NCBI GenBank assembly: GCA_943354875.1
Contig: CALRDJ010000003.1
Location: 1 to 38,847, forward strand
From: Candidatus Levybacteria bacterium GW2011_GWA1_37_16
Lineage (GTDB): Bacteria; Patescibacteriota; Microgenomatia; Levybacterales; UBA12049
Reading direction: 5' to 3'
DNA: 38,847 nt
Shown: one piece after another, positions 6,284-38,789 of the stretch
How positions within the stretch are numbered: the stretch's first letter is position 1
How the letters are laid out: each line of letters opens with the position of its first letter
Position numbers and translations under genes: made by a program
Notes under the pieces: model-generated
Seen by the model: only the letters and a program-made list of their open reading frames with translations
Told to the model about the DNA's origin: nothing
Database searches by the model: none

Positions 6284-6321
6284 AAGGAACCCTAACTGAG
6301 ATATATCTAATTGTAGGAAAG

Positions 6322-6738: not shown

Positions 6739-7958
6739 GTTGCGCTTCGCATATAATTTTTATAATAATAGCTTGCCAGGACAACAAAAACAACACATTC
6801 GGTAATTCCGGTAATCATTGCTGACGCTAAATATGAACCAATAGGAATAAAAATAATATTTAAGCCCACATTAAAAATAGCGCAGAATAAATACGTCCAC
6901 ATTAAAAACTTTTGTTTTTTCTCAGCTATAATTCCCCACTGCAAAAGACTAGTTCCAAAGAAAAACGGTAACGAAAAAAGTAGTAATCTAAACGATGCTA
7001 TGGCTCCCACAAAGTCTTGTTTTATAAGTATTATAAGTGGAGCGAGAAACCATAAAACAATAGCAAGCACTACTCCAATTATCATAGCACATACTGTATA
7101 GGCAGCCACCATTTTTCCATTTCTTCGAAAATTTTTCTGGTTTTCCAAAAGCATAGGATACAGTGCATTTGATAAAAAAAGGGGGAGCGCAATCAGAAAA
7201 TCAAAAAACCGATACGACAGTCCATAGGTACCCACATCGGCAGTTGATTTTAGGAAAGACAAAATAAAAATATCTATACGAAAATAAATAAGATTAAAAA
7301 TAAGCATAAGACCTAGCGGTAGGCTTTTCAAAAAAAGCAATTTTACTTTTAGATGATCAACTTTCATATTTACTTTTTTGTAAATAAATATGAACGACAA
7401 CAGCGCTGTCACAATAGATCCGACGACAAAACTTCCCACGACAAAAAGAAGAGAGATGTTTGTTAAAAATGCATAGAATATAAACGCCATAGTAACCGAG
7501 GAGCCAACGAGCGATATAAGCAATAGAGCGGAATATCGTAGTTCTTTTTGATATATCGATGTGGCTGATAACAAAACTGCCTGTGCTATAAGAGTCAAAG
7601 AGAAAATAATCATGCCAGTTTTTACCATAGGAGAAAATCCTATTTCGAAAAAATCACTAAACGGCAACACCACGACAAGCAATGCAATAATTCCTACCGA
7701 AGAAAGAGCCAAAAGAATTCGAGCGACCAGTAGATTACCAAAGTTCTTATGGGGATCGTCCTGAAGAGCGATTGCATTCATGCCGAAATCTACCACGAGA
7801 TAAAGCATGCCGACAGTCGTTGTAATCTGAACAAGCTGTCCGTATCCAGTAACTCCTAAGGCTTGCGCAGTTAAAATGGTAATTAAAAGCGTTATGGATG
7901 CGGTGAGGACTTTCTGAATCACTTGATATAAGGTATTGAGGAAAATCTTTTGATGCAT
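6735..7958 (-). CDS. polysaccharide flippase (Wzx/MOP superfamily)
   Basis: Polytopic membrane protein with LGVTGYG, DFGMN, YFRIDIFILS and VGTYGLSYR motifs. Confidence 0.85.
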   Translation of the reverse strand: MHQKIFLNTLYQVIQKVLTASITLLITILTAQALGVTGYGQLVQITTTVGMLYLVVDFGMNAIALQDDPHKNFGNLLVARILLALSSVGIIALLVVVLPFSDFFEIGFSPMVKTGMIIFSLTLIAQAVLLSATSIYQKELRYSALLLISLVGSSVTMAFIFYAFLTNISLLFVVGSFVVGSIVTALLSFIFIYKKVNMKVDHLKVKLLFLKSLPLGLMLIFNLIYFRIDIFILSFLKSTADVGTYGLSYRFFDFLIALPLFLSNALYPMLLENQKNFRRNGKMVAAYTVCAMIIGVVLAIVLWFLAPLIILIKQDFVGAIASFRLLLFSLPFFFGTSLLQWGIIAEKKQKFLMWTYLFCAIFNVGLNIIFIPIGSYLASAMITGITECVVFVVLASYYYKNYMRSAT

Positions 7959-7974
7959 GAACTTACCTATTGTA

Positions 7975-9201
7975 TCAGATAGACTCTTTCCTCAGAAGCG
8001 GACTCCATGCCAGTCCCAATACAAAGCTGACGATCAAAAGACCCTGCTGACTTGTCAAAAAATAATGATCGGTCATACTCAGAACCAAAACAGCAATTAA
8101 CGTTGTCCGAAGAACTTTATTTTTTGTTTGAAAAAAAGTTTTCATAAGAAGATATCCCGACAAAGCAAATCCAAAAACTCCTGTTTGGCTTAAGATCAAG
8201 AGCATAACGTTGTGAACCGGCTGGTGGGACGAGTGAACATGATTATAAAAATTATTTAACCCAACGCCAAAGAATGGGTGAGACATGGTCATAGAAACAG
8301 CATTCTGGATTAACGAAAATCGCATGGATACCGACTCGTCAAAAGATGTTTGGACAAACCTCTCTGTCACGAAGGGAAAGAAAGCTCCTATTCCTACTAG
8401 CAAGGTCACCACGCCAATTATGGTTACTTTATTTACCTTTAATTTCTTATATAGAATTACCCACCCAAGGGCTCCCACAACTACTACAAGCGCACTTCTG
8501 CTCAGACTCGCAAAAAGCCCGACTATCCCCAGACACATAGATAGTATGTTTAACTTCTTGAGTGGAATAAGATTCTGGAGCATGACACCAATCACCAAAA
8601 ACCCGCCTAAGACATTCGGGTGAGAAAATGTTCCATAGGGTCTGAGGATTAATGCGCCACCAAGAGATACGTTTGCTGCGCCGGGCGTACTACCTACGAT
8701 CATACGCTCTCCAAAAAAATAAAATAATCCACCGATGGCACTCTGATGGAAAAATTGAACAACCGCTAAAAGTGACTGAGAGATTAGGCCAAGCGATAGA
8801 ACCACGAGAGATGCCCTCAAAACCTCTTTACTTGCCACATGTTTTACCAAGGCCCCAAACAATACCATCTCCACAAGTCTTACTAGTCCATATACTCCCG
8901 CGCCAGGATTCACAGAGAGCAGTATGCCTATGGAAATAACGACCACCAATGCGAAAAATAGTCGAGTCAATTGAATATTTTTTTTCTTTTTTTTTATCCA
9001 TTCTAAAAAACACTTACCATGTAAAACAAATTGTGATAGTAATAACACGTCAGTGACATACAGAGTAGGGGAGAGATAATCTACTCGAATTCCATCAACG
9101 ATAGAAAAATCCGGCCAAAAATGATAACCAAACTGGGTGGGAATAAAAAAGATGGTAATTAAGAAAAGGGGAGTAGAAAAATTTCTGATTTCAATTTTCA
9201 A
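7975..9201 (-). CDS. O-antigen ligase/polymerase family protein
   Basis: RPYGTFSHPNVLGG, SLSRSA, HPFFGVGLNNF and PVHN motifs; many TM segments. Confidence 0.85.
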   Translation of the reverse strand: MKIEIRNFSTPLFLITIFFIPTQFGYHFWPDFSIVDGIRVDYLSPTLYVTDVLLLSQFVLHGKCFLEWIKKKKKNIQLTRLFFALVVVISIGILLSVNPGAGVYGLVRLVEMVLFGALVKHVASKEVLRASLVVLSLGLISQSLLAVVQFFHQSAIGGLFYFFGERMIVGSTPGAANVSLGGALILRPYGTFSHPNVLGGFLVIGVMLQNLIPLKKLNILSMCLGIVGLFASLSRSALVVVVGALGWVILYKKLKVNKVTIIGVVTLLVGIGAFFPFVTERFVQTSFDESVSMRFSLIQNAVSMTMSHPFFGVGLNNFYNHVHSSHQPVHNVMLLILSQTGVFGFALSGYLLMKTFFQTKNKVLRTTLIAVLVLSMTDHYFLTSQQGLLIVSFVLGLAWSPLLRKESI

Positions 9202-15164: not shown

Positions 15165-16790
15165 TTAAGGATTTAAGATGGACTTCATGAATTGATAATG
15201 GAGCGGAGCGCGACCTTGGCCAAATGGATATAAGCTTTGTTTTTTCGGACAGCTATTCACGATAACTTGTTCAGGAAATAGGTTTATAAAATAAGAGACA
15301 GATTCTGCAAAGTCCTCATCCACATTGCAATCACCATATCCAGTTAGTCCTCCCTCCTTGCTTCTGATTTCCGAAATCTTGCCATAGACTGCTTTTCTCG
15401 GACTACCAGCTGGTCCATGGATGACATGTCCGAGTTCATGAATGATTATTGCCTTAAATAGCGTTTCATTTGCAGTACTGGCACCAGGAGATGTATTTAC
15501 GGTCACCTCCGGTGGATTTTTCCAATTAAATGTTTCAGTGGTTCTTCCTGAATCAGGCAGTATTTTAATGGGTAAGCCACTCCCTGCTTCTTTTAAAAGC
15601 GGAAAGAATTGTGGTGCGACACTTTTCGCATTTCCAAAAGATTCATAGGACCACCTGAGCACTTCAAGACTAAAATCCGTGGCCATATCGATGTTGAACT
15701 GGTCAAGGATTTGTTTGCGTACTGTTGCAAGGTCATTACCTACCGGAGGGACTGTTCCCGATGGAGTGACAGCGGTTAATACGCATGCATGTATGCCAGC
15801 ATACAAGTCATTGCCATAGCTATATGGACCCGAAGTGCATCCCCCTGGTCCATATAGTGAACATCCGTAATAACTTCTTGCTACGGCCTGCATCACATCT
15901 TTGTTGCTGGTCCAGGACGGATCCCATTTAGTACCATCACCATATCCGCCAAATACCGGATAGCTGATTTTTTTTAGGATAAACCCCGTGGCGATCGTGA
16001 TACTGTTTTTTAGGTTACACATGTCAGCTTCAGTCAGTTGTTCCGGGGTTTTGCCGATCATGCGAGCACCGTTTCCCACAGCTCCTCCGTCGTATGCCCC
16101 TACATCTTCAAAGGGTGGAATTGCCTTGCTCGTTCCCCTTAGTCGTGCGTATAGCACATCATGAATCTGCTTCGGTGGCTGTATTTGCATAAGACCGAGG
16201 GCGCCTGTTCCGCTTATGGCGCAGCCAATGCCTGATAGTTCTTCGTCAGCGATTCCTGCGATACTGGGAGATTCTACTCGAGCAATAGCAGCCACCACCT
16301 GTGGGGGAACAGAGGAGAGGGTAGATGCTTCTTGAAAATAGCTCAGGAGCGTAGGGCTTTTATACAGAGCTGTGGTTGGCGATTGATCGCTTCTGGTAAA
16401 CGCACAGGAAGCTAAGTTTCCAGTATATGTTGCGGGTGTTCCTGACGGGATTGTTCCACCAATTGCCGTACCTCCTGGTGTTGGTGTGTCAGATGGTTTG
16501 GTTTCTCCTCCAGAGCTCAGGACTAAAAAAAGAGTTCCGATGATAATACCAATGACTACTAGAACAGGAATAAGTTCGAAAAAGATAACTCTTCCCGCTA
16601 GTTTTTTCGCCACCGATCCAGCGACTTGTTTCTCTACTTCATCGGTTGCTTTCTTTTTCGCAAAGCGTCCTGCAATATTTCTCATCGCAGCGTTTCCTGC
16701 TTGATTTGCAACGGGATTAGAAGATGACCCCGACTGGGGAGCTTGTTGCTGGGGCTGTTCTGGTTCTTGTTCTTGTTCTTGTTCGTCCAT
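15165..16790 (-). CDS. membrane-anchored lytic transglycosylase-like + HExxH metallopeptidase fusion (VirB1-analogue)
   Basis: One TM segment; AAIARVES...GALGLMQIQP (lysozyme/SLT-like); IIHELGHVIH...EDFAES (zincin); directly downstream of virB4. Confidence 0.7.
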   Translation of the reverse strand: MDEQEQEQEPEQPQQQAPQSGSSSNPVANQAGNAAMRNIAGRFAKKKATDEVEKQVAGSVAKKLAGRVIFFELIPVLVVIGIIIGTLFLVLSSGGETKPSDTPTPGGTAIGGTIPSGTPATYTGNLASCAFTRSDQSPTTALYKSPTLLSYFQEASTLSSVPPQVVAAIARVESPSIAGIADEELSGIGCAISGTGALGLMQIQPPKQIHDVLYARLRGTSKAIPPFEDVGAYDGGAVGNGARMIGKTPEQLTEADMCNLKNSITIATGFILKKISYPVFGGYGDGTKWDPSWTSNKDVMQAVARSYYGCSLYGPGGCTSGPYSYGNDLYAGIHACVLTAVTPSGTVPPVGNDLATVRKQILDQFNIDMATDFSLEVLRWSYESFGNAKSVAPQFFPLLKEAGSGLPIKILPDSGRTTETFNWKNPPEVTVNTSPGASTANETLFKAIIIHELGHVIHGPAGSPRKAVYGKISEIRSKEGGLTGYGDCNVDEDFAESVSYFINLFPEQVIVNSCPKKQSLYPFGQGRAPLHYQFMKSILNP

Positions 16791-16798
16791 AGCTCATA

Positions 16799-18805
16799 TT
16801 ATGGTGTTGCCGGTGACAAAGGTGATGGATTTGTAGTTGCGACTGGGGTAACAGGCGAGACTGGAAGCACAGGAATTGGCGCTGAGACAGGAGCCATAGG
16901 TGTCTGAGTGGGTGGTGCGGGTGGAGTGGGCGCAGCTGTGATGGGTTGAGCTACTGGTTCCTGACGCGCCATAGCCTGTTGACGGGCTAAAACTTCCTGA
17001 GGATTTGAGGTGATAAGCTCATGCTCAAAGGGCGCTGCGATAACCTTCATCGCCACATGGTTTTGTCCTGCGAAAAATAGTCCTTCTCCGATGTCGGCAG
17101 AAAGGAGAAGAGCTTTCTCTCCTTCTGAGAGAAAAAAGGTTTTCGTAATCATGTCCACCTCTGCGGCTCCCTGCTTTAGCAGGACTTGAATAGACGAGTT
17201 GGTGAGGACCGCCTTACCATAATCAGTAGAAAGGAAATCCTCTACGTCTTGGGTCGCTGTAGTGAGTCCCAGATAGTACTTACGAGCCCTCTTGGCTATG
17301 CTGTAAACGAATGATGCGCTGTCTTCATATTTCATCATGTACCACGCTTCGTCTAGAATAAGCAGTCTTTTTTTCAGTGTTTTTCGAACTCGTGTCCACA
17401 CGAAATCCAGAATTATATGCATGGCAATTGGTCGTAATTCTTCTTCGAGTCCTCGAATGGAGAAGACAGTAAATGGATTGGTAATATTGAAGTTAGACTG
17501 CTGATTAAAAATACCATTTAAGCTCCCCTTTATAAACTTTTCGAGTCGCAGTGCGAGTTCTTTGGCAGCAGGATCTTCTGTTCCCAGGAGTGTTTTGTAC
17601 AGGTCCTCCATAAGCGGTGCGGGTTGTTTTTGGGTCGCAGGATCTGTCGTAATGCCTTTTTGGCGATACGTCTCCATAAGCGCTCGATCTAATATGGCGT
17701 CGTGTGAGGCATCAAGTTCTCCCATAATGATGCGAAGGAGTCCGTGGAGAGAGAGGATTTTTAGTCCGAGCTCGTTTTCTCCTTCTTCATAGAGACCAGA
17801 CAGATCAAACGGATTGATCTTTATCGGAGAGTTGGAGGTAAATGATACATATTCTCCGCCAACAGTCTTGGCTAATGTTTCATATTCCCCTTCGGGGTCG
17901 ACTATGATCACCTCTGCGCCAAACATAAATTGTCGCATAGCCTCCAGTTTTATAAGAAATGATTTTCCAGAGCCTGATTTTCCGAGGACTACCTCGTTTG
18001 CGTTTTCCAGGGAAAATCGGTCAAAGATGACCAGTGAATTATTTTGCTGGTTAATACCATAGAGCACTCCTTTGTCTTGGGTCAGGGTGGCTGAGGTAAA
18101 TGGAAAAGTAGATGCGAGTGACGTCGTGTCCATATTTCGGGTGATAAAGAGCTTATCTTGTCCGGTAGGCACGGTGGATTTAAATCCTTCTTCCATTTGG
18201 AGTGTGGCTGTTTTGGCTGTCATGAGAAGTGATCCAAGCGTTGCCTGTAGTCTTCTCGTGGAATCTTCGAGGTCTCCATCGGTGTCGGCCGAAATAGTAA
18301 GGTACAGACTGAATTGGTAAAATCGTTCTACGCCCTTTGCTAGTTCTCCTTGGAGCGCAAGTGCGTCCTCCAGCGCTGCGGTGACTTTCGGATCCAAGAC
18401 TTGGTTGTGTTCGACCTGAGACGAGACGGTTGCTTCCATTTCTGCAATTTTTCGCCGTAAGTCTGAAAGGACATCGCTTGAGGTCGTAGGATAAATAAAC
18501 ATAGAGATATCCATGGTATGGTCAAAATCTATGATCGGCTGAAGCCAGTTCGCTGACACATATCGTGGATAGTCGACGACGAACAGCGTTTTAAAGAACT
18601 GTTCACCGACGCGAATAAAGCGAAAGTCTACTTCTATCGACGATGGTGCTATAACATCTGCCAGAGAAACCATGCCTTTTTCAAGAGCTGCGAGCTGTGT
18701 GGCTCCTTGGGCTGCTTGCTCAGTTGGCGACTTGGGCTTCAGTGTGCCCGGTTGGACATTCTCTGTCATGGTCGGCGTAGTTACTTTTTTGCCAAAGCCA
18801 AACAT
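16799..18805 (-). CDS. virB4: VirB4-family type IV secretion ATPase
   Basis: GVLYGIN, GKSGSGKS (Walker A), IVDPEGEY, INPFD, LILDEAW (Walker B), RARKY, ATQDVEDF. Confidence 0.9.
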   Translation of the reverse strand: MFGFGKKVTTPTMTENVQPGTLKPKSPTEQAAQGATQLAALEKGMVSLADVIAPSSIEVDFRFIRVGEQFFKTLFVVDYPRYVSANWLQPIIDFDHTMDISMFIYPTTSSDVLSDLRRKIAEMEATVSSQVEHNQVLDPKVTAALEDALALQGELAKGVERFYQFSLYLTISADTDGDLEDSTRRLQATLGSLLMTAKTATLQMEEGFKSTVPTGQDKLFITRNMDTTSLASTFPFTSATLTQDKGVLYGINQQNNSLVIFDRFSLENANEVVLGKSGSGKSFLIKLEAMRQFMFGAEVIIVDPEGEYETLAKTVGGEYVSFTSNSPIKINPFDLSGLYEEGENELGLKILSLHGLLRIIMGELDASHDAILDRALMETYRQKGITTDPATQKQPAPLMEDLYKTLLGTEDPAAKELALRLEKFIKGSLNGIFNQQSNFNITNPFTVFSIRGLEEELRPIAMHIILDFVWTRVRKTLKKRLLILDEAWYMMKYEDSASFVYSIAKRARKYYLGLTTATQDVEDFLSTDYGKAVLTNSSIQVLLKQGAAEVDMITKTFFLSEGEKALLLSADIGEGLFFAGQNHVAMKVIAAPFEHELITSNPQEVLARQQAMARQEPVAQPITAAPTPPAPPTQTPMAPVSAPIPVLPVSPVTPVATTNPSPLSPATP

Positions 18806-25781: not shown

Positions 25782-26102
25782 CTATTTACAGTTATCAAAG
25801 CCGAATTGCTTTATGCAGTCAGTTCCCGTAAGTCCTGAGATGAAATTTACTATGAAAAACGATATAAGTATTATAACCAGTCCTATGACTGCGTAGGTGA
25901 GGGTGTTTCTAGCCGAGTCGGCTTGTTTCGGGTCTCCACCAGCAGAGATGTACTTATAGCCCGCGTAGAGTATCATGAACACTGCTACGATCCCAGAAAA
26001 TATTAATAGACCATTCACTACGTTTTGAAATACTGCGGGAATGCACTTCAGGGTGGCCACGCCATTTACTACACAGTCTTTTACTATAATATTCCAATCC
26101 AT
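25782..26102 (-). CDS. VirB2/TrbC-like T4SS pilin
   Basis: Two TM helices around GYKYISAGGDPKQADSARNTLTYAVIGL. Confidence 0.8.
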   Translation of the reverse strand: MDWNIIVKDCVVNGVATLKCIPAVFQNVVNGLLIFSGIVAVFMILYAGYKYISAGGDPKQADSARNTLTYAVIGLVIILISFFIVNFISGLTGTDCIKQFGFDNCK

Positions 26103-26157: not shown

Positions 26158-26574
26158 CTAGTAACCAGGAGCACCAGGGCGAAGGACAGGGATTTGGAGG
26201 TCGGTTAAGCTGACTCCGAATATGCCTCCAATGAATTGGATGATAAAGAATGCGAGAAGAGCGATAACGAGCCCTACGATGGCTGCCACTATGTGATTTC
26301 GTGCTGCGTCCACTGCTGCTTTATCGCCACCTGAAGTAATCCATTTGATGCCCCCATAAATAAGGAAGAAAAGTGCTGCTACAACTGCTACGATAATGAG
26401 AATAGTAATAAGGCGTGATATGAGGCCACCTAACGAGCCAAAATTAAAAGTACAAAGTAGATTAGCAGTTCTTTGATCGCCTCCGCATAAATTAACCGTA
26501 CTCTGTGCAAATGCTGGAGCTGCATAGGAGAGATAAGAGAGAAATCCTGTGGTTATGCCGATAGCTTTTTTCAT
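26158..26574 (-). CDS. VirB2/TrbC-like T4SS pilin with signal peptide
   Basis: Signal peptide ending PAFA; GGIKWITSGGDKAAVDAARNHIVAAIVGL. Confidence 0.82.
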   Translation of the reverse strand: MKKAIGITTGFLSYLSYAAPAFAQSTVNLCGGDQRTANLLCTFNFGSLGGLISRLITILIIVAVVAALFFLIYGGIKWITSGGDKAAVDAARNHIVAAIVGLVIALLAFFIIQFIGGIFGVSLTDLQIPVLRPGAPGY

Positions 26575-26633
26575 TAATCTAATCTAATAACATTTCACTA
26601 TCCTTGTCAAGCCCCTATTCTCTTTGGGGCGTA

Positions 26634-26741
26634 GACCCCTCAACAATCGCTCTTCGAGCCGCGCTACGAATAGTAGGCCTGCCCGAAATGCTTCGCATAT
26701 CGAAGCGGGCGGGTAAGGCGAAAAGTAAGATGTGTGGGGTC
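26634..26741 (+). ncRNA. unknown structured three-way-junction element, copy 2
   Basis: Closed by GACCCC/GGGGTC; homologous to 20785-20895. Confidence 0.55.
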
Positions 26742-26757
26742 AAGGAGTAAATTCCCC

Positions 26758-27116
26758 TGTCATCCTGAACTTGTTTCAGGATCTCCCTTTCGTCATTGCG
26801 ATCCCGATCTAATCGGGAGAAGCAATCTCATTGTCATTCTGGAGTCCGCCGAAGGCGAGACGATAGAATCTCTTTCTCTCCTCGTTACTTTTTCCGAGGA
26901 AAAGTAACACAAAAACTCTTTTGCACTAAGCCTCCACCTAAAAATACTCCGTTCTCTTATCGGGGGATTGTCCTCCCCCTTCAGCAGTTCGCTGGATTCT
27001 CCCTGATAGCTCACTCCATATTTTTTTAACGGTGACTTCTTAAAGCAAAAGAAAGGGAGACCGCATATAGTTCTGCTATAGACACTGGGAGATCCTGAAA
27101 CAAGTTCAGGATGACA
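26758..27116. mobile_element. MITE/REP-like composite element with perfect 30-bp terminal inverted repeats
   Basis: TGTCATCCTGAACTTGTTTCAGGATCTCCC at 26758-26787 and its exact reverse complement at 27087-27116; further GTCAT...ATCTC palindromes at 26791-26829 and 26832-26872. Confidence 0.7.
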
Positions 27117-27157
27117 CCGATGACACCGATGACAACGAGGAGAGAGGAGAGGGATCG

Positions 27158-27505
27158 TTATGGGGTTCCTTGGGATAAGTCTACTCCAAACAATCCTCCT
27201 ATGAATTGGACGATAAAGAGCGCGAGAAGACCGATTATAAGTCCGATGATGCTGTAGGTGAGGCGATTGCGTGCTGTCTGGAGTGCTTGTTTATCTCCGC
27301 CTGATATAGTCCACTGAATACCACTGTAGATAAGAGAGAAAAGCGCTGCGATGATGACCACGATTATAAATACGGTAATACCGCGCTGGATGATGGCTTG
27401 GCCGGCTCCGCCAGCTTCAAGCCCGCCGGTGGGGATTCCTGTGGGAGCCTGAATGACTACAGGTGTTCCATTCGAACCCGGAATTGATAATGATAGTAAT
27501 CTCAT
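27158..27505 (-). CDS. VirB2/TrbC-like T4SS pilin
   Basis: GIQWTISGGDKQALQTARNRLTYSIIGL between two TM helices. Confidence 0.8.
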   Translation of the reverse strand: MRLLSLSIPGSNGTPVVIQAPTGIPTGGLEAGGAGQAIIQRGITVFIIVVIIAALFSLIYSGIQWTISGGDKQALQTARNRLTYSIIGLIIGLLALFIVQFIGGLFGVDLSQGTP

Positions 27506-27510
27506 CGTTT

Positions 27511-27537
27511 GAATTATGAATAAAGAATTATGAATTA
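27511..27537. repeat. 7-nt repeat array (GAATTAT type), 3' flank of four-helix-bundle gene 1
   Basis: GAATTAT GAATAAA GAATTAT GAATTA; overlaps the stop codon. Confidence 0.75.
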
Positions 27538-27923
27538 CGTGATTTAGAGCTTCGTATAAGTCCGTTTGTTATTTTATGAACAATTATCGCTTGTTCTGCA
27601 AGTTTATCATAGTTTTCTTCTGAAATGAAGCCAACGTCCCTGGCAACTAATAGTTGATTTTGAAGTTCAGTAATTGACCCGAGAGATATTGAATAAAACT
27701 GTGTTTTTTCTTTGTAAGATTGTCTGCTAAAGCCTTCCGCAATATTCGAGGTTATGGATATGGCGCATCTTCTCATCTGGCTAACTAGGCCGAAAAGCTC
27801 TTCTTTGGGAAATGTTCCCGTAGTCGAATAAACCATCAAGACTAATTTATGTCCTTCTTTCCAAGCATTCAAATCATGGAATGTCCTAATCCTGCTTTCC
27901 GTAATTCTTAATTCATGCGTCAT
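27528..27923 (-). CDS. four helix bundle protein (23S rRNA intervening-sequence protein family)
   Basis: FHDLNAW, FPKEELFGLVSQMRR, SITSNIAEG, GSITELQNQL. ATG 27923 avoids overlap with the upstream gene. Confidence 0.9.
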   Translation of the reverse strand: MTHELRITESRIRTFHDLNAWKEGHKLVLMVYSTTGTFPKEELFGLVSQMRRCAISITSNIAEGFSRQSYKEKTQFYSISLGSITELQNQLLVARDVGFISEENYDKLAEQAIIVHKITNGLIRSSKSRNS

Positions 27924-27930
27924 AATTCTT
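27886..27930. repeat. inverted 7-nt repeat array (TAATTC type), 5' flank of four-helix-bundle gene 1
   Basis: GTAATTC TTAATTC ATGCGTC ATAATTC at 27901-27928 plus weaker upstream units; complementary to 27511-27537. Confidence 0.65.
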
Positions 27931-27936
27931 GCGAGA

Positions 27937-29292
27937 TCACTTTCCAAATCCCGGGATTTTTAGGATGTCTACTCCTACTACTTGGAGGATGACGAGGGCA
28001 AAGATCATAAACAGAAGTCCGATGACAGCAGAGGTGAGTGTCTCTCGTGCTGCTTTTAGTTTTTCAGGGTCTCCCTGAGAGGTCATAAATCGATAGCCAG
28101 TAGCGATAATTATGAGAAGGAGTATTCCCCCTGCTAGGCTTAGGATGATGGAGAAGATTTTTTTTACAAAATCAGCGGGATTTGTATCGATATCGCCTAT
28201 GGCCGTATTTACCTTCTTGCATTGATAGGTTTTTCCTCCCCATATATCTTTTCCTTCAACCAGGCTATTTTCTGCGCAAGGAAGCTTCATGGTTTGAGGT
28301 CTGGCTGGATCTGGGAGCTTGAAGTCTCCGGCGTTGGCTCTGGAGCATTGAGCTGTTCCTGGCGCAGGGGGTCCGGGGGTAAAGTTTAAGAGGATGCCAT
28401 TTGTATCGCAGTGGGTGGTGGCTATAGAGAGCCCTGAAACTTTATTAAGGCCTAAGGTAAATACAGTGAGGACTACATTTGCTACATCTCCTACATATGT
28501 AGGTCCGTTGCTGAGGACTGTACTCATCTTTTCTATGCAGAACTTTTTACTGCCTACCTCATCTGTCGAGTTTGCAGGGATGGGAAATTCATCGAATATC
28601 GTCTGATTTTTTTTAGTAGTAAATGCTGGTTGGGCAAAGACACCTCCTTCCCACCACCACCAGTAAGTGGTTTCGGGAGATAGATTAGTGATTCGTGAAA
28701 CTTGAGCTACTGTTCCTGCTTGGAAGGTGCATGCATTTTGGGTTACGACGTCTATTTTCGGTAGCGTGGCTTGTGATGCAGTGGGTTTTTTTTTACCAAC
28801 TTGTATGGTAGTTTCGCCAAGAAAGTATTTTTTATCAGTACATTTGCGTATATCAGTAGTCTTACATATGGCTATGGTCCATGGTTGATCTGGGAATTCA
28901 TCTCCAGTAACAAATGATCGTATTCCCGTAAGTCTTTCATGCAACGGCCCTATTAAGCTAATGTCAGTGGTTAATTTGGTAGCAGAAGATGGGGTAACCC
29001 AATGATGGTCAGGTTGACGCGTGACTAATATTCCGCCGCCTTCTTTAAAAAAATTTTCAGGAAACCCTCCAATCTTTGGGTAGGCAAGGACATAATAAGA
29101 TCCTGCAAACGAGCAGTCAGGGTCGCCAGAAATGGTAATACTCATGGTTCCGCTAAAGGTTGCTGGTAGTGGATCGTTGCCAAATAAAGTGTCTGTTGTG
29201 AGAGTGCAGGCGGCATGTGCTGTCGAAGGAGTGCTCAGGAATGTGGAGATTACGAAAAATAACGATAGTACGACAGGCAGAAATCTTCTCAC
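27937..29292 (-). CDS. large exported Cys-containing domain fused to a C-terminal VirB2/TrbC-like pilin
   Basis: Signal peptide (VRRFLPVVLSLFF...TAHA) from GTG 29292; C-terminal VNTAIGDI...GYRFMTSQGDPEKLKAARETLTSAVIGL. Confidence 0.75.
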   Translation of the reverse strand: MRRFLPVVLSLFFVISTFLSTPSTAHAACTLTTDTLFGNDPLPATFSGTMSITISGDPDCSFAGSYYVLAYPKIGGFPENFFKEGGGILVTRQPDHHWVTPSSATKLTTDISLIGPLHERLTGIRSFVTGDEFPDQPWTIAICKTTDIRKCTDKKYFLGETTIQVGKKKPTASQATLPKIDVVTQNACTFQAGTVAQVSRITNLSPETTYWWWWEGGVFAQPAFTTKKNQTIFDEFPIPANSTDEVGSKKFCIEKMSTVLSNGPTYVGDVANVVLTVFTLGLNKVSGLSIATTHCDTNGILLNFTPGPPAPGTAQCSRANAGDFKLPDPARPQTMKLPCAENSLVEGKDIWGGKTYQCKKVNTAIGDIDTNPADFVKKIFSIILSLAGGILLLIIIATGYRFMTSQGDPEKLKAARETLTSAVIGLLFMIFALVILQVVGVDILKIPGFGK

Positions 29293-29338
29293 CTCTTCAT
29301 CGTAGCGCAAAAACAGCAGGAATTGCAAGCAACGTAAC

Positions 29339-29436
29339 TAGACGGTAGAAGGTGGAGAGTTGAAGATAAAGCTTTGACGGTAGAAAATAGATGGTAGAAG
29401 ATAGAATTTTGAAGATTGAAGATGGAGCATAGAATG
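29339..29436 (+). repeat. 14 x 7-nt degenerate tandem repeat (TAGAAGA-like)
   Basis: TAGACGG TAGAAGG TGGAGAG TTGAAGA TAAAGCT TTGACGG TAGAAAA TAGATGG TAGAAGA TAGAATT TTGAAGA TTGAAGA TGGAGCA TAGAATG. Confidence 0.85.
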
Positions 29437-29450
29437 AATACAATGAGATT

Positions 29451-29813
29451 GTGATCAGAAGTTTTAAAGACTTAGAAGTTTACCAAGAGTCATATGAACT
29501 TGCTATTTTGGTTAACCGAGAAGTTAACAAATTGCCACTTTTTGAACGAAATGACCTAGGATCGCAACTTCGGAGAGCATCAAAATCCGCGCCTTCAAAT
29601 ATTGCAGAAGGCTGGGCTAAAAGAAGGTTTGAAAAGCAATTTAAGCTACATTTGGATTCAAGCATAGGCTCATGCAATGAAATGGAAGTTCATATAAGCA
29701 TGGCGAGAGATTTAAGTTTTTGGAAAAAAGATTTTTGTGAAAGTCTACTTCAACGATACTTACTGCTTGGTGGGAAAATAACCAACTTAAGAAATAATTG
29801 GAAAACGTTCTAA
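29451..29813 (+). CDS. four helix bundle protein (23S rRNA intervening-sequence protein family)
   Basis: IRSFKDLEVYQ, LPLFERNDLGSQLRRASKSAPSNIAEG, GSCNE. Confidence 0.9.
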   Translation: MIRSFKDLEVYQESYELAILVNREVNKLPLFERNDLGSQLRRASKSAPSNIAEGWAKRRFEKQFKLHLDSSIGSCNEMEVHISMARDLSFWKKDFCESLLQRYLLLGGKITNLRNNWKTF

Positions 29814-29883
29814 TCTACCTTCTACGTTCTATCTTCAAGTATCTATTCTCCATTTTCTATTATCTACCGTCTACGGTCTATTG
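29814..29883 (-). repeat. 10 x 7-nt degenerate tandem repeat, inverted relative to 29339-29436
   Basis: On + strand: TCTACCT TCTACGT TCTATCT TCAAGTA TCTATTC TCCATTT TCTATTA TCTACCG TCTACGG TCTATTG, starting immediately after the stop codon. Confidence 0.85.
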
Positions 29884-29918
29884 ATATTGTCAGTTTTTTG
29901 TATCGTTTTCGTGTTCTT

Positions 29919-29990: not shown

Positions 29991-32942
29991 ATGGGAGAGC
30001 AAGTTATAAGACCAGAATCGTTGACAAGTCAGCCTCATCCCGCATATGCTAGAGGTGGAGATATTTCTATGCCCATAGACAACACTGGAGACACACGAAG
30101 ACCTCCTCGTCCGAGAACACAGGAAGAAGTTATAGCCGCGATGCCTCGCAGAGAGGGTTATGAGGTAGCAGAAGAAATGGAGAGGGCAGAGCGTGAAAGA
30201 GGTGAGCGGGTAGCTCGAGAGGCCTCTCGAGCAGGGCCTCAGCAAAGACCGCGACTTGCGGAAAACATGCGGCCGATATCTGGGGGAGCGAATGGAGTAC
30301 ATATCCAAGCAGATGACATCCAGGATCCCAGGATCAGAAGAGAGTTAGAGCGATTAAATAATTTCATGGATGTAAACGATGGTGTTCATGATACGACGCT
30401 TCTTCAGGAAGCAGACAAGCACATAGGGCGTTTAGAGGGGGTAAATCCTGCAGATCGATCAAATGCATTGAATCGAATTCGTGCGGAGCAGGTTGCAGCG
30501 CGCCAGCACATGGAGCAGGAAGCATTAAGACATAAACCTCAGCGTAACAGGCGGGAAGAAGAGTCAGATGATCTAGATTTTCATCCAACTGATTTTTATG
30601 GAGCAACGAAGCTCTCAAAGAATGAGATAGAGAATATTCCAAAGTGGATAGAACAGATGATTAAAACTGTTCGTGATCGTTCAGAAGCTCATGGTGGAGA
30701 CCACGGTCTTCACGCAGTGAGTGGTGACCTAGAGCACAATGATCTAGACCAGCTGTTTAACCGCATGTTTAGGAGGGTAGATAATTCTCCCCGTGAATCA
30801 TTTGAGCATGCATTTGGACAAGTCGGTAGTCAGGAGGAAACAGAATTTTTTACTCAGATCCAGCAATATCGCTTTCAGCTCCAGAAGGAGCATAAGCATG
30901 AAGAGTCGGGCGTGGTCGAGCAGATAATCCACAAATATGAAGTAGAGAAGAGTGCGCGTAGCACACTCCATAATGCTTACTATATCGCTGATTCAGGACG
31001 AGAGATGAAAGACTTCGTCGGATTTATCGCGACGTTCGCCTCTGAATATGCAGATGCGGCATTTCAAAACGCTCCTGAAGTAGAAGCAGCAGTGCGTGTG
31101 CGTGAGCAGGTCTTATTTCAGATAAAGCGGGAAAATAATGGATTTATTCCTCACTCGGTCATCGCCTTTAATCCGAAAATTTATGGATCAGAATTTGATC
31201 ATCGTGCTAAAGCTATGATGCGTACGATGAATGGTAAGAAGCTTTTCGGGGATATACTCGGAGAGTGGAAGATAGATCGGGCCTTGGAGCTTTCTCGAGG
31301 ACTTGGTATGGTCACCTGGCGGTATTTGGAGATCGTAGCAGAGTGTCCACTCCCTGATATTAATGGATCGAATAAGGCTCAGCAAAGTATTCCATGGGAG
31401 CTCATCACGTGGGACATGAATCCGATGGATCATAAAGTAAAGAGGTATCGTATCGGTCGACAGATGCAGTCAATTCTGATCGCAGGAGGAACGCGTACAA
31501 AACAAGGCATGTGGGATAAAAATGAATTGTCAGGCGCATTAGAGCAGTACGAGATAAGCAAGAATATCGATGAGAGTTCCGGGTTCGTAAGCGGTATGGA
31601 CCGGAATAACTTATTTAAAATCGGCGGACCCTTTACGCACACGGGATGGCGTACATTCGTAGCTGCGATGGATGAGAATATGGAGGGACTGGAGCCGATG
31701 CTTGAAAACGATCCGGGAGTAGCGATAAAACTGTTATTCAATAGATATCATGACCACGATCAGGTAAAAGAGCGTGACGCATTTTTAAAAAGTCCAGGTG
31801 TCGCAGGATTATCGACTGCAGAGACAAAACGGCTGTGGGATGAGGAGAAAGAGCGAACAAAGGACGCTGCAAACGAACGGTGGAGTGATGACGATGCGAA
31901 TGCTTTTAAATCGACCACTGCGCGTATTCCACACGTGATGCTTCGTCTCATCACAGACCCTGGATATAAGCTTTTAGATCCAGAAGAGAGGACGAAGTTG
32001 ATGAGAGATATTTTTGGAGATCGCGTGAATCAACCTGGTTTTCAGGAGTACTACTCAAATGTAGAAACACAGCTAACGATCGCAAAGGAAGGACTCCTCA
32101 AAAGGAGAAGGGAATATATAGCTGAGAAAGAACGACGAGAAAAGGCACATGAAAGCCTAGAGGGCTTAGTGTTTAAAAACAGATTAGTGGATGATCCGGA
32201 TGATCCGGATGATGATTTTAAGCTTATTACTGATGATGGTCTGCGAGACCAGGCGATAACGCTTCATCGGGTGATGACTGACCGTATGGATAACGATGAT
32301 ACGTTAGTGGAGAAGATTATAGAAAAGCATAAAGCGCGTGGATTTATGTTCGCGATTACTGCTGAGGATATTCCTTGGGGAGAATTTGCCTATCGAAAAA
32401 CTGGAGGTCGAGGATTTTTCACTCGAAAAGCAAATGATAACATGGCAGACAAGGGTGCGACCGATGAGCTCATGAATATCCTGAAGAATATTAAGCAGTT
32501 TAAGAAGCCAGAGCAAATATATGAGTCTATCTATAAGATGTTCATGGCTGCTGAGACACATGATCTTGATCGGGCACAGGATGCGGTGATATTCGTTCTA
32601 AAAGGTATTATCCGGGTATATCAAAAAGATGGAATACTGAAGATACCTATCTTAGGAGATTTAGAGAGCGCTCGAAGACAAGCGACTGGTCAGTACGAAG
32701 GAGACTCTCTCGCTCAGGATTTCTATGGGCGAAGTATTGCTCCGGCGTGGGATGACGATGCTATTTATAATCTTATATCGATGTTCCAGCCTATTCTCGA
32801 AAAAGATCAAATAGAGGCGCTTCGAAAAGAAGTCGGGGCGACTTTAGGGAAAGCGTTGTGGGCTAAGTCAAAATTAGCAATATACTTAGGTCTTATAACG
32901 TTTATGCTGGAGTTTTTTAACAAATTAACGAAGACGAAATAA
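29991..32942 (+). CDS. large helical hypothetical protein with C-terminal membrane anchor and RPISGGA motif
   Basis: Start moved from 29898 to ATG 29991; highly charged; single hydrophobic tail LAIYLGLITFMLEFF followed by basic residues. Confidence 0.85.
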   Translation: MGEQVIRPESLTSQPHPAYARGGDISMPIDNTGDTRRPPRPRTQEEVIAAMPRREGYEVAEEMERAERERGERVAREASRAGPQQRPRLAENMRPISGGANGVHIQADDIQDPRIRRELERLNNFMDVNDGVHDTTLLQEADKHIGRLEGVNPADRSNALNRIRAEQVAARQHMEQEALRHKPQRNRREEESDDLDFHPTDFYGATKLSKNEIENIPKWIEQMIKTVRDRSEAHGGDHGLHAVSGDLEHNDLDQLFNRMFRRVDNSPRESFEHAFGQVGSQEETEFFTQIQQYRFQLQKEHKHEESGVVEQIIHKYEVEKSARSTLHNAYYIADSGREMKDFVGFIATFASEYADAAFQNAPEVEAAVRVREQVLFQIKRENNGFIPHSVIAFNPKIYGSEFDHRAKAMMRTMNGKKLFGDILGEWKIDRALELSRGLGMVTWRYLEIVAECPLPDINGSNKAQQSIPWELITWDMNPMDHKVKRYRIGRQMQSILIAGGTRTKQGMWDKNELSGALEQYEISKNIDESSGFVSGMDRNNLFKIGGPFTHTGWRTFVAAMDENMEGLEPMLENDPGVAIKLLFNRYHDHDQVKERDAFLKSPGVAGLSTAETKRLWDEEKERTKDAANERWSDDDANAFKSTTARIPHVMLRLITDPGYKLLDPEERTKLMRDIFGDRVNQPGFQEYYSNVETQLTIAKEGLLKRRREYIAEKERREKAHESLEGLVFKNRLVDDPDDPDDDFKLITDDGLRDQAITLHRVMTDRMDNDDTLVEKIIEKHKARGFMFAITAEDIPWGEFAYRKTGGRGFFTRKANDNMADKGATDELMNILKNIKQFKKPEQIYESIYKMFMAAETHDLDRAQDAVIFVLKGIIRVYQKDGILKIPILGDLESARRQATGQYEGDSLAQDFYGRSIAPAWDDDAIYNLISMFQPILEKDQIEALRKEVGATLGKALWAKSKLAIYLGLITFMLEFFNKLTKTK

Positions 32943-34800: not shown

Positions 34801-34803
34801 ACG

Positions 34804-34870
34804 ATGAATTATGAAGTAGGGATCACGAATCATGGAAAACCATAATTCATAATTCTTTATTCATGATTCC
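34804..34870. repeat. gene-less inverted pair of 7-nt arrays
   Basis: ATGAATT ATGAAGT AGGGATC ACGAATC ATGG, loop, CA TAATTCA TAATTCT TTATTCA TGATTCC; 34843-34869 is a 26/27 match to the reverse complement of 27511-27537. Confidence 0.75.
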
Positions 34871-34928
34871 AATTACAGTGTGGAATATTTGGGAGAAAAA
34901 GTCAACGCTGAGAGCGGAAACGGATACT

Positions 34929-35106
34929 CTATGCTATTAAGCTTTTAATTTGCTCTTTGAATGGAGATAGATCTTTTTGAACGACCTCCCATATAAGTTC
35001 TAAATCTAGTCCAAAATATTCATGGACAATCTTATCTCTCATTCCTGCAATCTCTTTCCATACTCTCCAAAATATGTCTAAGAAAGACTTGTGGATCCTT
35101 TTTCAT
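34929..35106 (-). pseudogene. HEPN/DUF86 (HepT-like) toxin with internal deletion and frameshift
   Basis: MKKDPQVFLRHILES is fused out of frame to WKEIAGMRDKIVHEYFGLDLELIWEVVQKDL (R-x4-H motif); ATGA overlap with the MNT gene. Confidence 0.85.
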
Positions 35107-35393
35107 AAAATTTGTATTTGGTCTTTCTGAATATATACTTTTAAGTATGGAGAAATAGATTTGTATGTTAATAAATCAATCTTTTTCCCAAGCGCTTCCT
35201 GCAATTTGTTCTCAAGCCCTATTAAATCAAGAAGACTTTTTCCTTTCGGAAGTTCCACGAGTACATCAATGTCGCTGTCTTCTGTTTCTTCTCCGCGAAC
35301 ATATGACCCAAAAAGAGAAGAGCGTGTAACGCCTGCTTCTTTCAGGATGGGTAAGGCTTTATTTTTAATATTGTCTAAATTTGCTTGCGTCAT
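35103..35393 (-). CDS. minimal nucleotidyltransferase (MNT) antitoxin
   Basis: LFGSYVRGEETEDSDIDVLV (GS-x10-DxD), LGKKIDLLT. Confidence 0.9.
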   Translation of the reverse strand: MTQANLDNIKNKALPILKEAGVTRSSLFGSYVRGEETEDSDIDVLVELPKGKSLLDLIGLENKLQEALGKKIDLLTYKSISPYLKVYIQKDQIQIL

Positions 35394-35648: not shown

Positions 35649-36047
35649 TTACTCACTCTTTTTAGAGTTTTTCGATAGCCACGAAGAAATTTCTTCAACT
35701 TTCATATCTTCCTTCTCGATTTGTAATATAAACTGTACTAAATTTTTTTGTTTCACTTCCAGGGAATAGTTATTCATCTCTAAAAATAAAAGTGTGGTGG
35801 CCGTAGCAGTTCTTTTATTTCCATCGACAAAAGGATGATTCATGATCAAGGAGTGAAGCAGCGATGCGGCTTTATGAAAAATAGAGGGATACAAATCTTC
35901 TCCATCAAAACTAGATTGTGGTCTGAATACTGCAGATTCTAAAAGTCCTAAATCACGTAAGCCGTGACTGCCGCCATATCGTTCAATTTGGTCTGTATGT
36001 ACGGTAATGACTTGTTCGAGGTTAAGAAAGTACGTATGAGAAGTCAC
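35649..36047 (-). CDS. doc: Fic/Doc family toxin
   Basis: YGGSHGLRDLGLLESA, HPFVDGNKRTA. Confidence 0.9.
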   Translation of the reverse strand: MTSHTYFLNLEQVITVHTDQIERYGGSHGLRDLGLLESAVFRPQSSFDGEDLYPSIFHKAASLLHSLIMNHPFVDGNKRTATATTLLFLEMNNYSLEVKQKNLVQFILQIEKEDMKVEEISSWLSKNSKKSE

Positions 36048-38702: not shown

Positions 38703-38789
38703 CGGAGAGGGGGAGATTCGAACTCCCGATACCCTTGCGAGCATACCTGCTTTCCAAGCAAGCGCACTAGGCCACTATGCGACCTCTCC
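38703..38789 (-). tRNA. tRNA-Ser(GGA)
   Basis: Acceptor GGAGAGG/CCTCTCC, anticodon arm CTTGC-TTGGAAA-GCAGG, long variable arm, GGGAG-TTCGAAT-CTCCC T arm; CCA not encoded. Confidence 0.96.

Follow-up and report, generated by a model that had tools for sequence, protein, structure and literature searches.

Heptamer repeats and rRNA intervening sequences

A family of four-helix-bundle proteins (PF05635) was found in the intervening sequences (IVSs) of bacterial rRNA genes, and the available accounts present it as resembling Avd, the accessory protein of diversity-generating retroelements (DGRs), and as having no known function (PMC10053308, PMC4990558). Here we report on a gene of this family that is enclosed by inverted arrays of 7-nt repeats and lies outside rRNA, at positions 29339-29883 of a 38,847-nt contig of Candidatus Levybacteria bacterium GW2011_GWA1_37_16 (CALRDJ010000003.1; contig C3 of the genome studied, G000). 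This whole contig is called the window below; the gene with its two arrays, or arms, is called cassette 2, and a second such unit nearby cassette 1. An earlier sequence-only reading of this DNA had drawn on the same family background, which the literature bears out, and had proposed cassette 2 as an undescribed mobile or regulatory unit in which an oligomeric protein recognises periodic repeats.

In the 23S IVS of Coxiella burnetii, two to three tandem GACAGAT units, depending on the strain, stand directly upstream of the ATG of the family protein, S23p, and RNase III cleaves where the first of these heptamers begins, in a 28-bp terminal stem (PMC4990558). S23p is cited there as a 'homopentamer ... 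toroidal', and 23S IVSs with an S23p open reading frame (ORF) are cited also for Leptospira, Xanthomonas and Brucella. Cassette 2 is like these elements in its PF05635 protein, in an ORF enclosed by a long stem of terminal inverted repeats and, as in Coxiella, in upstream heptamers. It is unlike them in its position outside rRNA, between protein-coding genes of a locus with type IV secretion system (T4SS) pilin-domain proteins, in its much longer arms (14 + 10 units) and in an apparent leaderless promoter of its own. Compared strictly with an rRNA IVS, cassette 2 has the enclosing stem and lacks the insertion in an rRNA gene; judged from its sequence, it is by kind an rRNA-IVS cassette in a new setting.

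The resemblance of PF05635 to Avd, a related four-helix-bundle protein (PMC10053308), extends to a weak match of the cassette 1 protein to the Avd model (E 1.2e-4) and to the five chains in the structure entry 2GSC. Identity with Avd was nevertheless rejected, as the cassette 2 protein gave no match to that model and the cassette 1 protein reached 22.3 bits against an equivalog cut-off of 80. Unlike DGRs, the cassettes showed no template or variable repeats; no reverse transcriptase was found near them, and the sole RVT_1 match in G000 lies at C4:6640-7104, on a contig without any copy of the family.

Heptamer repeats have also been described apart from this family. Intergenic TAACTGA heptamers of Cyanobacteria, Beggiatoaceae and Bacteroidetes lie for the most part directly upstream of start codons or at promoters, their function and partner being given as unknown (PMC4679880), and in the available text of that paper the terms '23S', 'S23' and 'four helix' do not occur. 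In a Nostoc preprint, heptamer repeats are reported to alter promoter activity, and a binding partner, still unknown, is postulated (10.1101/2022.06.06.494920). Gene-less arrays in G000 are likewise tandem, 7 nt in period, intergenic and near gene starts; they differ from the known ones in that complementary pairs here surround a four-helix-bundle gene and array density tracks the number of gene copies. An older name for intergenic heptamer repeats is short tandemly repeated repetitive (STRR) sequences.

A further likeness is found in the 5' untranslated region of hmw1A in Haemophilus influenzae, where a heptamer-repeat RNA hairpin, processed by RNase III, tunes a surface protein and changes in repeat number (PMC12721329). 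There too the 7-nt repeat makes up one arm of a long RNA hairpin, whereas the other arm is a G-rich stretch, the loop holds no gene and no dedicated protein is described. Oligomeric rings are also known among RNA-binding regulators, every subunit reading a short core that recurs at fixed spacing: TRAP reads GAG/UAG triplets and HutP reads UAG-N4 repeats. The (UAGA-N3)n form of the cassette 2 array resembles the HutP spacing; the folds, in contrast, are unrelated, TRAP and HutP sites are not known to have a complementary second array, and binding by the four-helix-bundle family is presumed here. Miniature inverted-repeat transposable elements (MITEs) and the repetitive extragenic palindromes (REPs) with their RAYT genes share with the cassettes the dispersal of short inverted-repeat units, some of them with a gene, over intergenic DNA, but the cassettes encode no transposase-like fold, their arms differ from one another and consist of phased heptamers, and the copies are old and syntenic. 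As functional precedents, the RNase III-cut Coxiella IVS and the hmw1A hairpin stand closest, with TRAP and HutP also comparable.

Beyond the Coxiella description we found no literature linking the four-helix-bundle family to heptamer arrays, nor any account of the general rule, of cores specific to subfamilies or of the genome-wide array link presented below, in a search of the papers proper. To this extent the unit may be called undescribed, but heptamers at an IVS had already been noted in Coxiella (PMC4990558).

Heptamer arms of cassette 2 and across the protein family

The cassette 2 gene (29451..29813, plus strand) has a GTG start and encodes 120 aa that match PF05635 (E 4.1e-23; 82.1 bits, curated cut-off 33.8) and TIGR02436 (E 4.1e-22; 78.5 bits, cut-off 24). 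The nearest solved structure is XCC0516 (2GSC; E 2.5e-11), an entry that holds five chains, and by this similarity the protein is a predicted homologue of a ring-shaped homopentamer. It contains the GxxRxxxSxxxNxxE-type motif noted for the family by Zhang and Ye (PMC3936711), here reading ...GSQLRRASKSAPSNIAEGW..., and Q39, I51, E53 and G54 are invariant in a 9-sequence family alignment.

Upstream of the gene, the 5' arm (29339..29436, plus strand) consists of 14 purine-rich heptamers in strict 7-nt phase, each with a T[AGT]GA core and three variable bases: TAGACGG TAGAAGG TGGAGAG TTGAAGA TAAAGCT TTGACGG TAGAAAA for units 1-7 and TAGATGG TAGAAGA TAGAATT TTGAAGA TTGAAGA TGGAGCA TAGAATG for units 8-14 (TAGA seven times, TTGA four, TGGA twice and TAAA once). 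The 3' arm (29814..29883, plus strand), the complement of the 5' arm, starts on the first base past the TAA stop (29811-29813) and has ten phased heptamers with a TC[ACT]A core: TCTACCT TCTACGT TCTATCT TCAAGTA TCTATTC TCCATTT TCTATTA TCTACCG TCTACGG TCTATTG (TCTA eight times, TCAA and TCCA once each). The two inverted arrays are exactly those that the sequence-only reading had described. Three TDGANNN units followed by TDGA gave 14 matches in the window, seven on the plus strand in the 5' arm and seven on the minus strand in the 3' arm, with zero outside the two arms in all 38.8 kb and a mean of 0.01 (largest 1) in 100 shuffles. The arms are complementary in inverted orientation over 60 nt at 70% (76-91% in shorter stretches), and the 561-nt unit folds with the arms as closing stem at -145.2 kcal/mol (z -4.55; 0/100 shuffles as good). 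The asymmetry of 14 versus 10 units is largely due to a tandem duplication of five units (35 nt) within the 5' arm (29341..29412, plus strand; period 35, 2.1 copies by Tandem Repeats Finder); in the alignment of 49 cassettes described below, the first ~35 nt of the window's 5' arm are extra.

G000 has three PF05635 genes, and all three are bracketed by heptamer arrays, each with a different heptamer, the copies being 31-34% identical to one another. Cassette 1 (27528..27923, minus strand) encodes 131 aa from its ATG (PF05635 E 8.3e-36; 34% identical to cassette 2). Its 5' arm of GAATTAT-type units (27900..27934, minus strand) contains the ATG, its 3' arm of TAATTCA-type units (27502..27543, minus strand) overlaps the last codons and the stop, and the fold has a z-score of -2.78. 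The third copy, on contig C29, has CAGTTAT / AACCGA-type arms, of which the 5' arm is broken by a small GC hairpin. GC-rich hairpins of the TCCCGAT...ATCGGGA or TCGCCTCGC...GCGAAGCGGG type sit at a similar position within heptamer arms, as at C29:3632-3660 in G000 and in the 5' arms of the metagenome loci L323, L324, L329, L332, L338 and L340. A gene-less, back-to-back inverted pair with GAAT cores of the cassette 1 type (34803..34875) abuts the start of a 608/619-aa gene in the same secretion locus. Two cassettes with different heptamers and a gene-less pair, from which a system had been suspected, are thus real.

Heptamer arms are a rule for the family and not an oddity of this locus. Relatives and metagenomes gave more than 150 cassettes in which the ORFs are intact and conserved, and the majority show the bracketing pattern, so that gene and arrays recur as a unit. 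Among 41 same-order relatives (G000 included), 31 have PF05635, with at most 20 matches per ~1-Mb genome. One locus per genome was used for a flank test, giving 28 loci after omission of 4/32 that single-sequence phmmer did not match. Period-7 scores of at least 0.6 were reached by 16/28 upstream and 11/28 downstream flanks, as against only 0-5/28 flanks at periods 4-6 and 8-11. Upstream flanks compared with the reverse complement of their own downstream flank scored a median of 28, while non-cognate partners had a median of 14 (95th percentile 21) and the own downstream flank in direct orientation 13; the cognate partner ranked first in 14/28 loci. Periodicity of 7 nt and inverted complementarity are what the sequence-only reading had proposed to look for around the family.

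For the cassette-1 subfamily, a 4-sequence alignment query, which samples that subfamily and not the whole family, gave 80 public-genome loci from many Patescibacteria classes at 58-73% identity and 82 usable cassettes; the closest loci were all labelled Patescibacteria/CPR (candidate phyla radiation). Period 7 was passed by 74/82 upstream and 42/82 downstream flanks, with at most 6 at other periods. Just 20/82 cognate scores exceeded the non-cognate 95th percentile, the poor separation being due to the GAAT core that most of these cassettes share. Among ten plasmid-borne examples from other phyla, six carry heptamer arms in inverted orientation: Nostoc edaphicum (GTAGGGA / TCCCTAC), Geminocystis, Anabaena 90, N. 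punctiforme, Riemerella (Bacteroidota) and Azospirillum (Alphaproteobacteria). A Picosynechococcus plasmid case has the same design at period 8.

Four cyanobacterial plasmid loci (L225, L227, L232 and L233) retain arrays within operons of the CRISPR-Cas type or between ribonucleotide reductase genes. The gene is found there in the orders cas6-gene-cas4 and cmr2-gene-cmr3, in agreement with a 2013 note that the four-helix-bundle family occurs in cas loci.

Arrays most often have five units (5' arm 49/111, 3' arm 35/111; about eight in the cassette-2 subfamily), a distribution shaped by the counting rule of at least three units with at most two mismatches. The match of this mode, and of the 35-nt duplication, to a presumed pentamer is noted only as a coincidence. 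Readings of the arrays as CRISPR, as part of a DGR or as peptide-coding were dropped: spacers are lacking, there is no reverse transcriptase nearby, and the arms are complementary.

A metagenome scan gave 80 loci encoding proteins 69-83% identical to the cassette 2 protein, of which 71 had enough flank and looked all alike by eye. The core occurs in phase at least three times in 67/71 upstream (T[AGT]GA) and 69/71 downstream (TC[ACT]A) arms. rRNA operons hold 16/80 of these relatives (11/20, 0/20, 5/20 and 0/20 by batch), some within 23S and some just past the 16S 3' end, and all 16 lie on the rRNA strand. With such close relatives in rRNA operons, cassette 2 can be regarded as a true IVS-type element outside rRNA.

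The cassettes in rRNA contexts also have a conserved motif pair beyond the arms, GGTAATACCGAGGGAAG upstream and TTGACCCCGTAGAGACT downstream (L307, L325, L330, L339, L343, L345, L346, L356, L358 and L372), which could be an extension of the stem or a helix of the host rRNA. At L337:1152-1379 a group I intron in the 23S rRNA gene stands beside a cassette-2-type insert, so that one CPR rRNA gene takes several kinds of insertion.

Stem and core were analysed in an alignment of 49 non-redundant cassettes, made up of the window's own and 48 others, out of 59 left after redundancy filtering at 97%. Eleven loci were omitted (L315, L317, L320, L323, L324, L329, L338, L347, L352, L362 and L370), several of them having hairpin insertions or rearranged arms. 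The arm consensuses are colinear reverse complements across 57 positions. Standard pairs fill 79.5% of the 2717 cells of this 57-pair stem; sliding the partner by 1-3 columns lowers this to 41-52%, and shuffling partners among sequences lowers it to 77.3 +/- 0.4% (0/500 reach 79.5%). The covariation score is 0.175 versus 0.144 shuffled (0/500), and 130 cells are altered on both sides versus 100.6 (2/500); the stem was defined from the arm consensuses of the same sequences, a choice that favours structure, and relatedness was disregarded in the shuffles. The four core positions of a unit hardly change in sequence (44-49/49), while the three spacer positions are free to vary, a quarter to half of the sequences leaving them unpaired. 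Pairing alone would leave the core unfixed, and the core must therefore be read by something.

At period 7, every protein subfamily has a 4-nt core of its own. GAAT occurs in phase in 53/82 cassette-1 relatives versus 2/71 cassette-2 relatives, and T[AGT]GA in 8/82 cassette-1 relatives. As one genome contains three cores and each is constant within its subfamily, the specific reader cannot be a host factor common to all cassettes, for example the ribosome or RNase III. Only the encoded protein changes together with the core, which makes it the candidate reader.

Gene-less arrays were surveyed in 100 kb from each of 27 genomes, excluding arrays at most 200 nt from a detected gene; gene counts came from a 9-sequence hidden Markov model, which could overlook divergent members. 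Per 100 kb, gene-less period-7 arrays were more numerous the more PF05635 copies a genome had (Spearman 0.76, p 0.001, in 15 same-order relatives; 0.90 in 12 genomes of seven other families; 0.83 in all 27). Genomes with zero copies had 1-10 arrays per 100 kb, the same as at periods 5, 8, 10 and 11, and genomes with 8-11 copies had 7-65, whereas those other periods showed no comparable excess in most of the 27 genomes.

G000 itself has a genome-wide period-7 excess, with 108 arrays found. They lie a median of 12 nt from a gene start, and 4/51 lie between convergent genes, as judged with a crude gene caller. Further arrays of the cassette types number 12 (T[AGT]GA) and 5 (GAAT), versus 0-1 in Markov genomes, and these are possible targets in trans; the gene-less pair at 34803-34875 is one of the five. 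In five gene-less hairpins of G000 the arms flank AAGGTACTATAAT, each hairpin being located some tens of nt upstream of an ATG.

These promoter-like palindromes consist of four to five TTAAAAG-type heptamers, AAGGTACTATAAT and the complementary heptamers (C10:7829-7941, C36:4496-4595, C56:4588-4683, C62:4164-4267 and C63:328-429). In a genome with 65 arrays per 100 kb and nine PF05635 matches (G092; L234-L238, G092:C1:100001-200000), intergenic mosaics of 400-500 nt contain many different heptamer arrays in recurring order and both orientations, for example at 402-854, 6027-6498, 7738-8185 and 17917-18464 of the joined 100 kb.

Possible uses of the arms and rival explanations

Arm polarity is consistent across the family, the purine-rich arm being the 5' arm in 100/111 cassettes. 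Cassette-1 relatives are co-oriented with both neighbours in 61/66 cases, with the ATG inside the last 5' unit and the last codons and stop inside the first 3' unit. As operon-embedded inserts they must have both arms on polycistronic RNA, and a gene for RNase III is present in G000. Cassette 2, in turn, appears to have its own leaderless promoter. A promoter-like site at 29416..29444 (plus strand) combines a -35 TTGAAG, itself a repeat unit, with a 17-nt spacer and a -10 TACAAT ending 6 nt before the start codon, according to an E. coli-type consensus that may not be that of Patescibacteria. In 40/71 cassette-2 relatives a -10-like hexamer precedes the start, its end being 5-7 nt away (exactly 6 nt in 31 of them); a control window gave 3/71. 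From the position of this putative promoter the mRNA would be leaderless and start past the 5' arm. Cassette-2 relatives lie in either orientation to the genes beside them, without bias (32+/24- upstream, 23+/31- downstream), which fits an own promoter. We conclude that the arms are used at both transcript and DNA level, transcript first and promoter-operator second.

The explanation that we rank highest, with the chances for and against it evenly poised, is that cassette 2 is an IVS-type cassette outside rRNA in which the arrays serve as cognate sites in cis, with the encoded ring protein as their probable reader, and form an imperfect RNase III-type stem when co-transcribed. The protein would read the periodic core of its own subfamily, in the transcript, in single-stranded DNA or in duplex DNA at its own promoter, and would thereby control its own expression and the genes beside gene-less arrays with the same core. 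Whenever both arms are on one transcript, as by read-through, in operon-embedded relatives or in rRNA hosts, they may form a long imperfect stem with four paired and three loose positions per unit, tolerating 7-nt register slips, and this stem could be an RNase III substrate, as experiments have shown for the IVS of Coxiella. Cassette 2 would otherwise be transcribed from its own promoter, with a repeat unit as -35, as a leaderless mRNA, and its arrays would lengthen or shorten by whole units. Protein binding, RNase III cleavage and promoter use are what we infer here; the mechanism is plausible. For the proposal that an oligomeric protein reads the repeats, the invariant subfamily-specific core, the three cores per genome and the array density tracking gene copies give indirect support. 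The observation behind the earlier reading is thereby confirmed and generalised and its interpretation partly supported, and we favour the reading of the arms as functional cis-elements under selection over one as slippage debris.

Several points weigh against this explanation. In Coxiella, S23p is reported as probably not made in vivo (PMC4990558), and if the putative promoter is used, the cassette's own mRNA would have no 5' arm and hence no stem. Common descent of the whole cassette would equally give the coupling of core and subfamily, but alone it would not fix the core while spacers and synonymous sites drift. The covariation is modest, with variable columns pairing at 64.9% versus 60.6 +/- 0.9% in shuffles that ignore relatedness, and RNAalifold did not recover the long stem from the 49-sequence alignment (13 pairs, -0.3 kcal/mol). 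Register shifts of 7 nt pair nearly as well as the true register, at 72-73%, which makes the stem a register-tolerant zipper. Three of the ten plasmid cases misfit, as Calothrix has no arrays, the arms on the gamma plasmid of Nostoc 7120 are non-complementary and the arrays of Pseudanabaena are direct. The association of arrays with copy number is phylogenetically uncorrected and has exceptions: G022, with four copies, reaches 9 arrays where the background is 7-8, and G043 (five copies) 11 against 5-15, G020 (zero copies) is high with 10 against 5-7, and G039 is low for its copies. The commonest gene-less arrays in G000 are A/T-rich (TTNAAAA-like), and the assembly contains no four-helix-bundle gene with that core. 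A strict relation of one protein to one core in trans was dropped on this ground, the largest array class having no matching gene; array classes were clustered by consensus heptamers at no more than one mismatch, which is too lax for A/T-rich units.

The arms could instead be purely structural RNA, serving only to form an RNase III stem that spares the host transcript, with a protein unrelated to the repeats and a periodicity that gives slip tolerance. Long predicted closing stems with 79.5% pairing in a conserved register agree with this, as do the Coxiella IVS, cut by RNase III while its protein is seemingly not made, the 16/80 co-oriented cassette-2 relatives in rRNA operons, and the sense orientation of operon-embedded cassette-1 relatives (61/66) in the presence of an RNase III gene. 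We nevertheless regard it as unlikely. A pairing-only model predicts covariation everywhere, but four of seven positions are fixed in sequence and the other three are often unpaired; subfamilies in one genome have different cores, and a core is retained throughout its subfamily at 58-83% protein identity; and ORFs are intact and conserved in the more than 150 cassettes. Many gene-less arrays, moreover, are single arms beside start codons and not stems, and a promoter within the 5' arm would leave the cassette 2 mRNA stemless. A promoter or operator device of DNA seems quite improbable; in it the arrays would flank promoters as binding sites or supercoiling-sensitive cruciform arms, their symmetry would loop or insulate a self-contained transcription unit, and pairing of RNA would be incidental. 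Arm polarity (100/111) and co-orientation with rRNA (16/16) indicate a transcript, a 7-bp period mismatches the helical repeat of DNA, cassette-1 relatives sit inside operons with no such promoter, and the promoter call itself depends on the E. coli-type consensus; the repeat unit as inferred -35 and the -10 fixed at 6 nt from the start (31/71) would nevertheless suit such a device, as would the five hairpins around AAGGTACTATAAT upstream of an ATG, the closeness of arrays to gene starts (median 12 nt) with few between convergent genes (4/51), and the promoter effects of Nostoc heptamers (10.1101/2022.06.06.494920).

Mobility, which had also been proposed, could take the form of a selfish element with the arms as terminal inverted repeats, a protein that is or recruits the mobility function and MITE-like gene-less pairs. 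Evidence for change over long times is clear. Close relatives (69-83% identical) occupy many contexts, including 16S-proximal and 23S-internal ones. The slot directly after the T4SS pilin-domain gene, syntenic in G000, G026 and two Levybacteria-type loci, holds three subfamilies (21-43% identity; G000, G026 and G008/G009), each with its own heptamers, and in G025 a gene-less TAGAAAT pair. The cassette unit thus clearly relocates or is replaced over long times, and its spread over evolutionary time is supported. Abundant gene-less pairs whose number tracks gene copies, small GC hairpins inserted in arms (C29, L323, L329 and L338) and the older idea of the IVS as a mobile element, cited in the discussion of PMC4990558, also agree with mobility. 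Transposition at present is, in contrast, not supported. Three copies at 31-34% identity with different arms make a currently active transposon unlikely, and a transposon or MITE was rejected as there are neither near-identical copies with common terminal repeats nor insertion polymorphism among close strains. Contigs from four runs of near-identical strains (X2-X5) bridge or cover the cassettes, and they contain no filled/empty difference, such as had been anticipated, and no joint skipping either cassette, although rare variants may be missed; one joint in X5, from 27115 to 27511, lies at a highly repeated hairpin and was not trusted. The only differences found were two deletions in one contig (depth 3.4), one of 7 nt, a single unit, at 29869, and one of 11 nt. 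Cassette 2 had no clean empty site either, as the neighbourhoods of relatives of the downstream 983-aa protein in G012 and G007 are rearranged, with no cassette or array, and four metagenome loci that by eye share the window's upstream flank (L299, L306, L308 and L310) are all filled. No target-site duplication was seen by eye, the only inspection made, at 29330-29338 and 29884-29892. Positions are syntenic across family- to order-level divergence (thyA-cassette-folA in three genomes, besides the pilin slot), and profile matches of the cassette proteins give no known nuclease or recombinase motif in the fold. On balance a selfish mobile element is improbable, and of the proposed mobility only the spread over evolutionary time stands.

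That slippage at AT-rich palindromes makes functionless arrays which the gene merely tolerates is very unlikely. Changes of unit number do occur (the 7-nt deletion, the 35-nt duplication and the strain variation in Coxiella), but period 7 alone is enriched, several phyla share the architecture, core and register are conserved at 69-83% protein identity, arm complementarity is cognate-specific, and arrays are placed exactly at start and stop codons.

A wider version of the explanation by an encoded reader holds that S23p/IVS proteins at large are ring-shaped, sequence-specific readers of heptamer-periodic nucleic acid, with the gene-less arrays as regulon, and form a portable module without transposase; this we put forward tentatively, as possible but doubtful. 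It would merge two old puzzles, an orphan rRNA-IVS protein family and the bacterial heptamer repeats, into one question; a structure of the former has been available since the mid-2000s with no function attached. The prediction is that protein subfamily X binds (core X-N3)n, and TAGA versus GAAT gives a cognate/non-cognate pair within one genome. If true, it would explain the gene within CRISPR-Cas, ribonucleotide reductase, thyA-folA and T4SS operons as well as in rRNA insertions. It would also supply the long-sought partner of heptamer repeats in Patescibacteria, Cyanobacteria, Bacteroidota and others, and a small modular set of repeat-reading proteins, a widespread code of protein and repeat in which gene and cognate inverted arrays autoregulate, insulate or process transcripts at any site of arrival, in rRNA genes and operons alike. 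Should only the RNA stem prove right, the more modest result would be that IVSs are a general class of cassette beyond rRNA, closed by register-tolerant heptamer zippers.

Secretion locus and further observations

Cassettes 1 and 2 are surrounded by a type IV secretion-like locus of the 1.05-Mb assembly (69 contigs, G+C 40%). It includes an SLT-domain protein (15165-16790), a TraG/VirB4-type P-loop ATPase (16799-18805) and four T4SS_pilin-domain proteins (25782-26102, 26158-26574, 27158-27505 and 27937-29328). The last of these, a 463-aa protein with the domain at its C-terminus (27937..29328, minus strand), lies between the cassettes, with cassette 1 directly downstream and cassette 2 directly upstream on the opposite strand, so that the site of cassette 2 is a divergent intergenic region of the pilin locus. 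The tie to surface-structure operons that had been suggested holds more widely: 19/31 gene-bearing relatives (G000 included) have a PF05635 copy at most 5 kb from this pilin-domain gene, far above chance at about five copies per Mb. Downstream of cassette 2 follows a fast-evolving 983-aa protein with no family match (29991..32942, plus strand), with three weak relatives among the 41 genomes (26% identity), and then the 608/619-aa gene whose start abuts the gene-less pair (32974-34800/34833, minus strand). The window gave no rRNA match and only one tRNA, at 38703-38789.

Further along the minus strand, a nucleotidyltransferase-domain protein (PF01909) and a neighbouring 132-aa ORF are encoded at 35103-35393 and 35649-36047. 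The 132-aa ORF resembles by eye a Fic/Doc-type or HEPN-type partner, and the two may form a toxin-antitoxin pair.

A GC-rich hairpin repeat of the CTGGGAGATCCTGAAACAAGTTCAGGAT type has 13 copies in G000 at no more than three mismatches, two of them in the window (27080-27118 and 26745-26790) and the others on C4, C6, C8, C23, C24, C29, C30, C34, C51 and C62 (twice). The same type of hairpin occurs in lake metagenome contigs with very high summed depth and many loose ends, and is therefore widespread beyond the host organism. Several such hairpins lie in the 26600-27110 spacer that separates two of the pilin genes.

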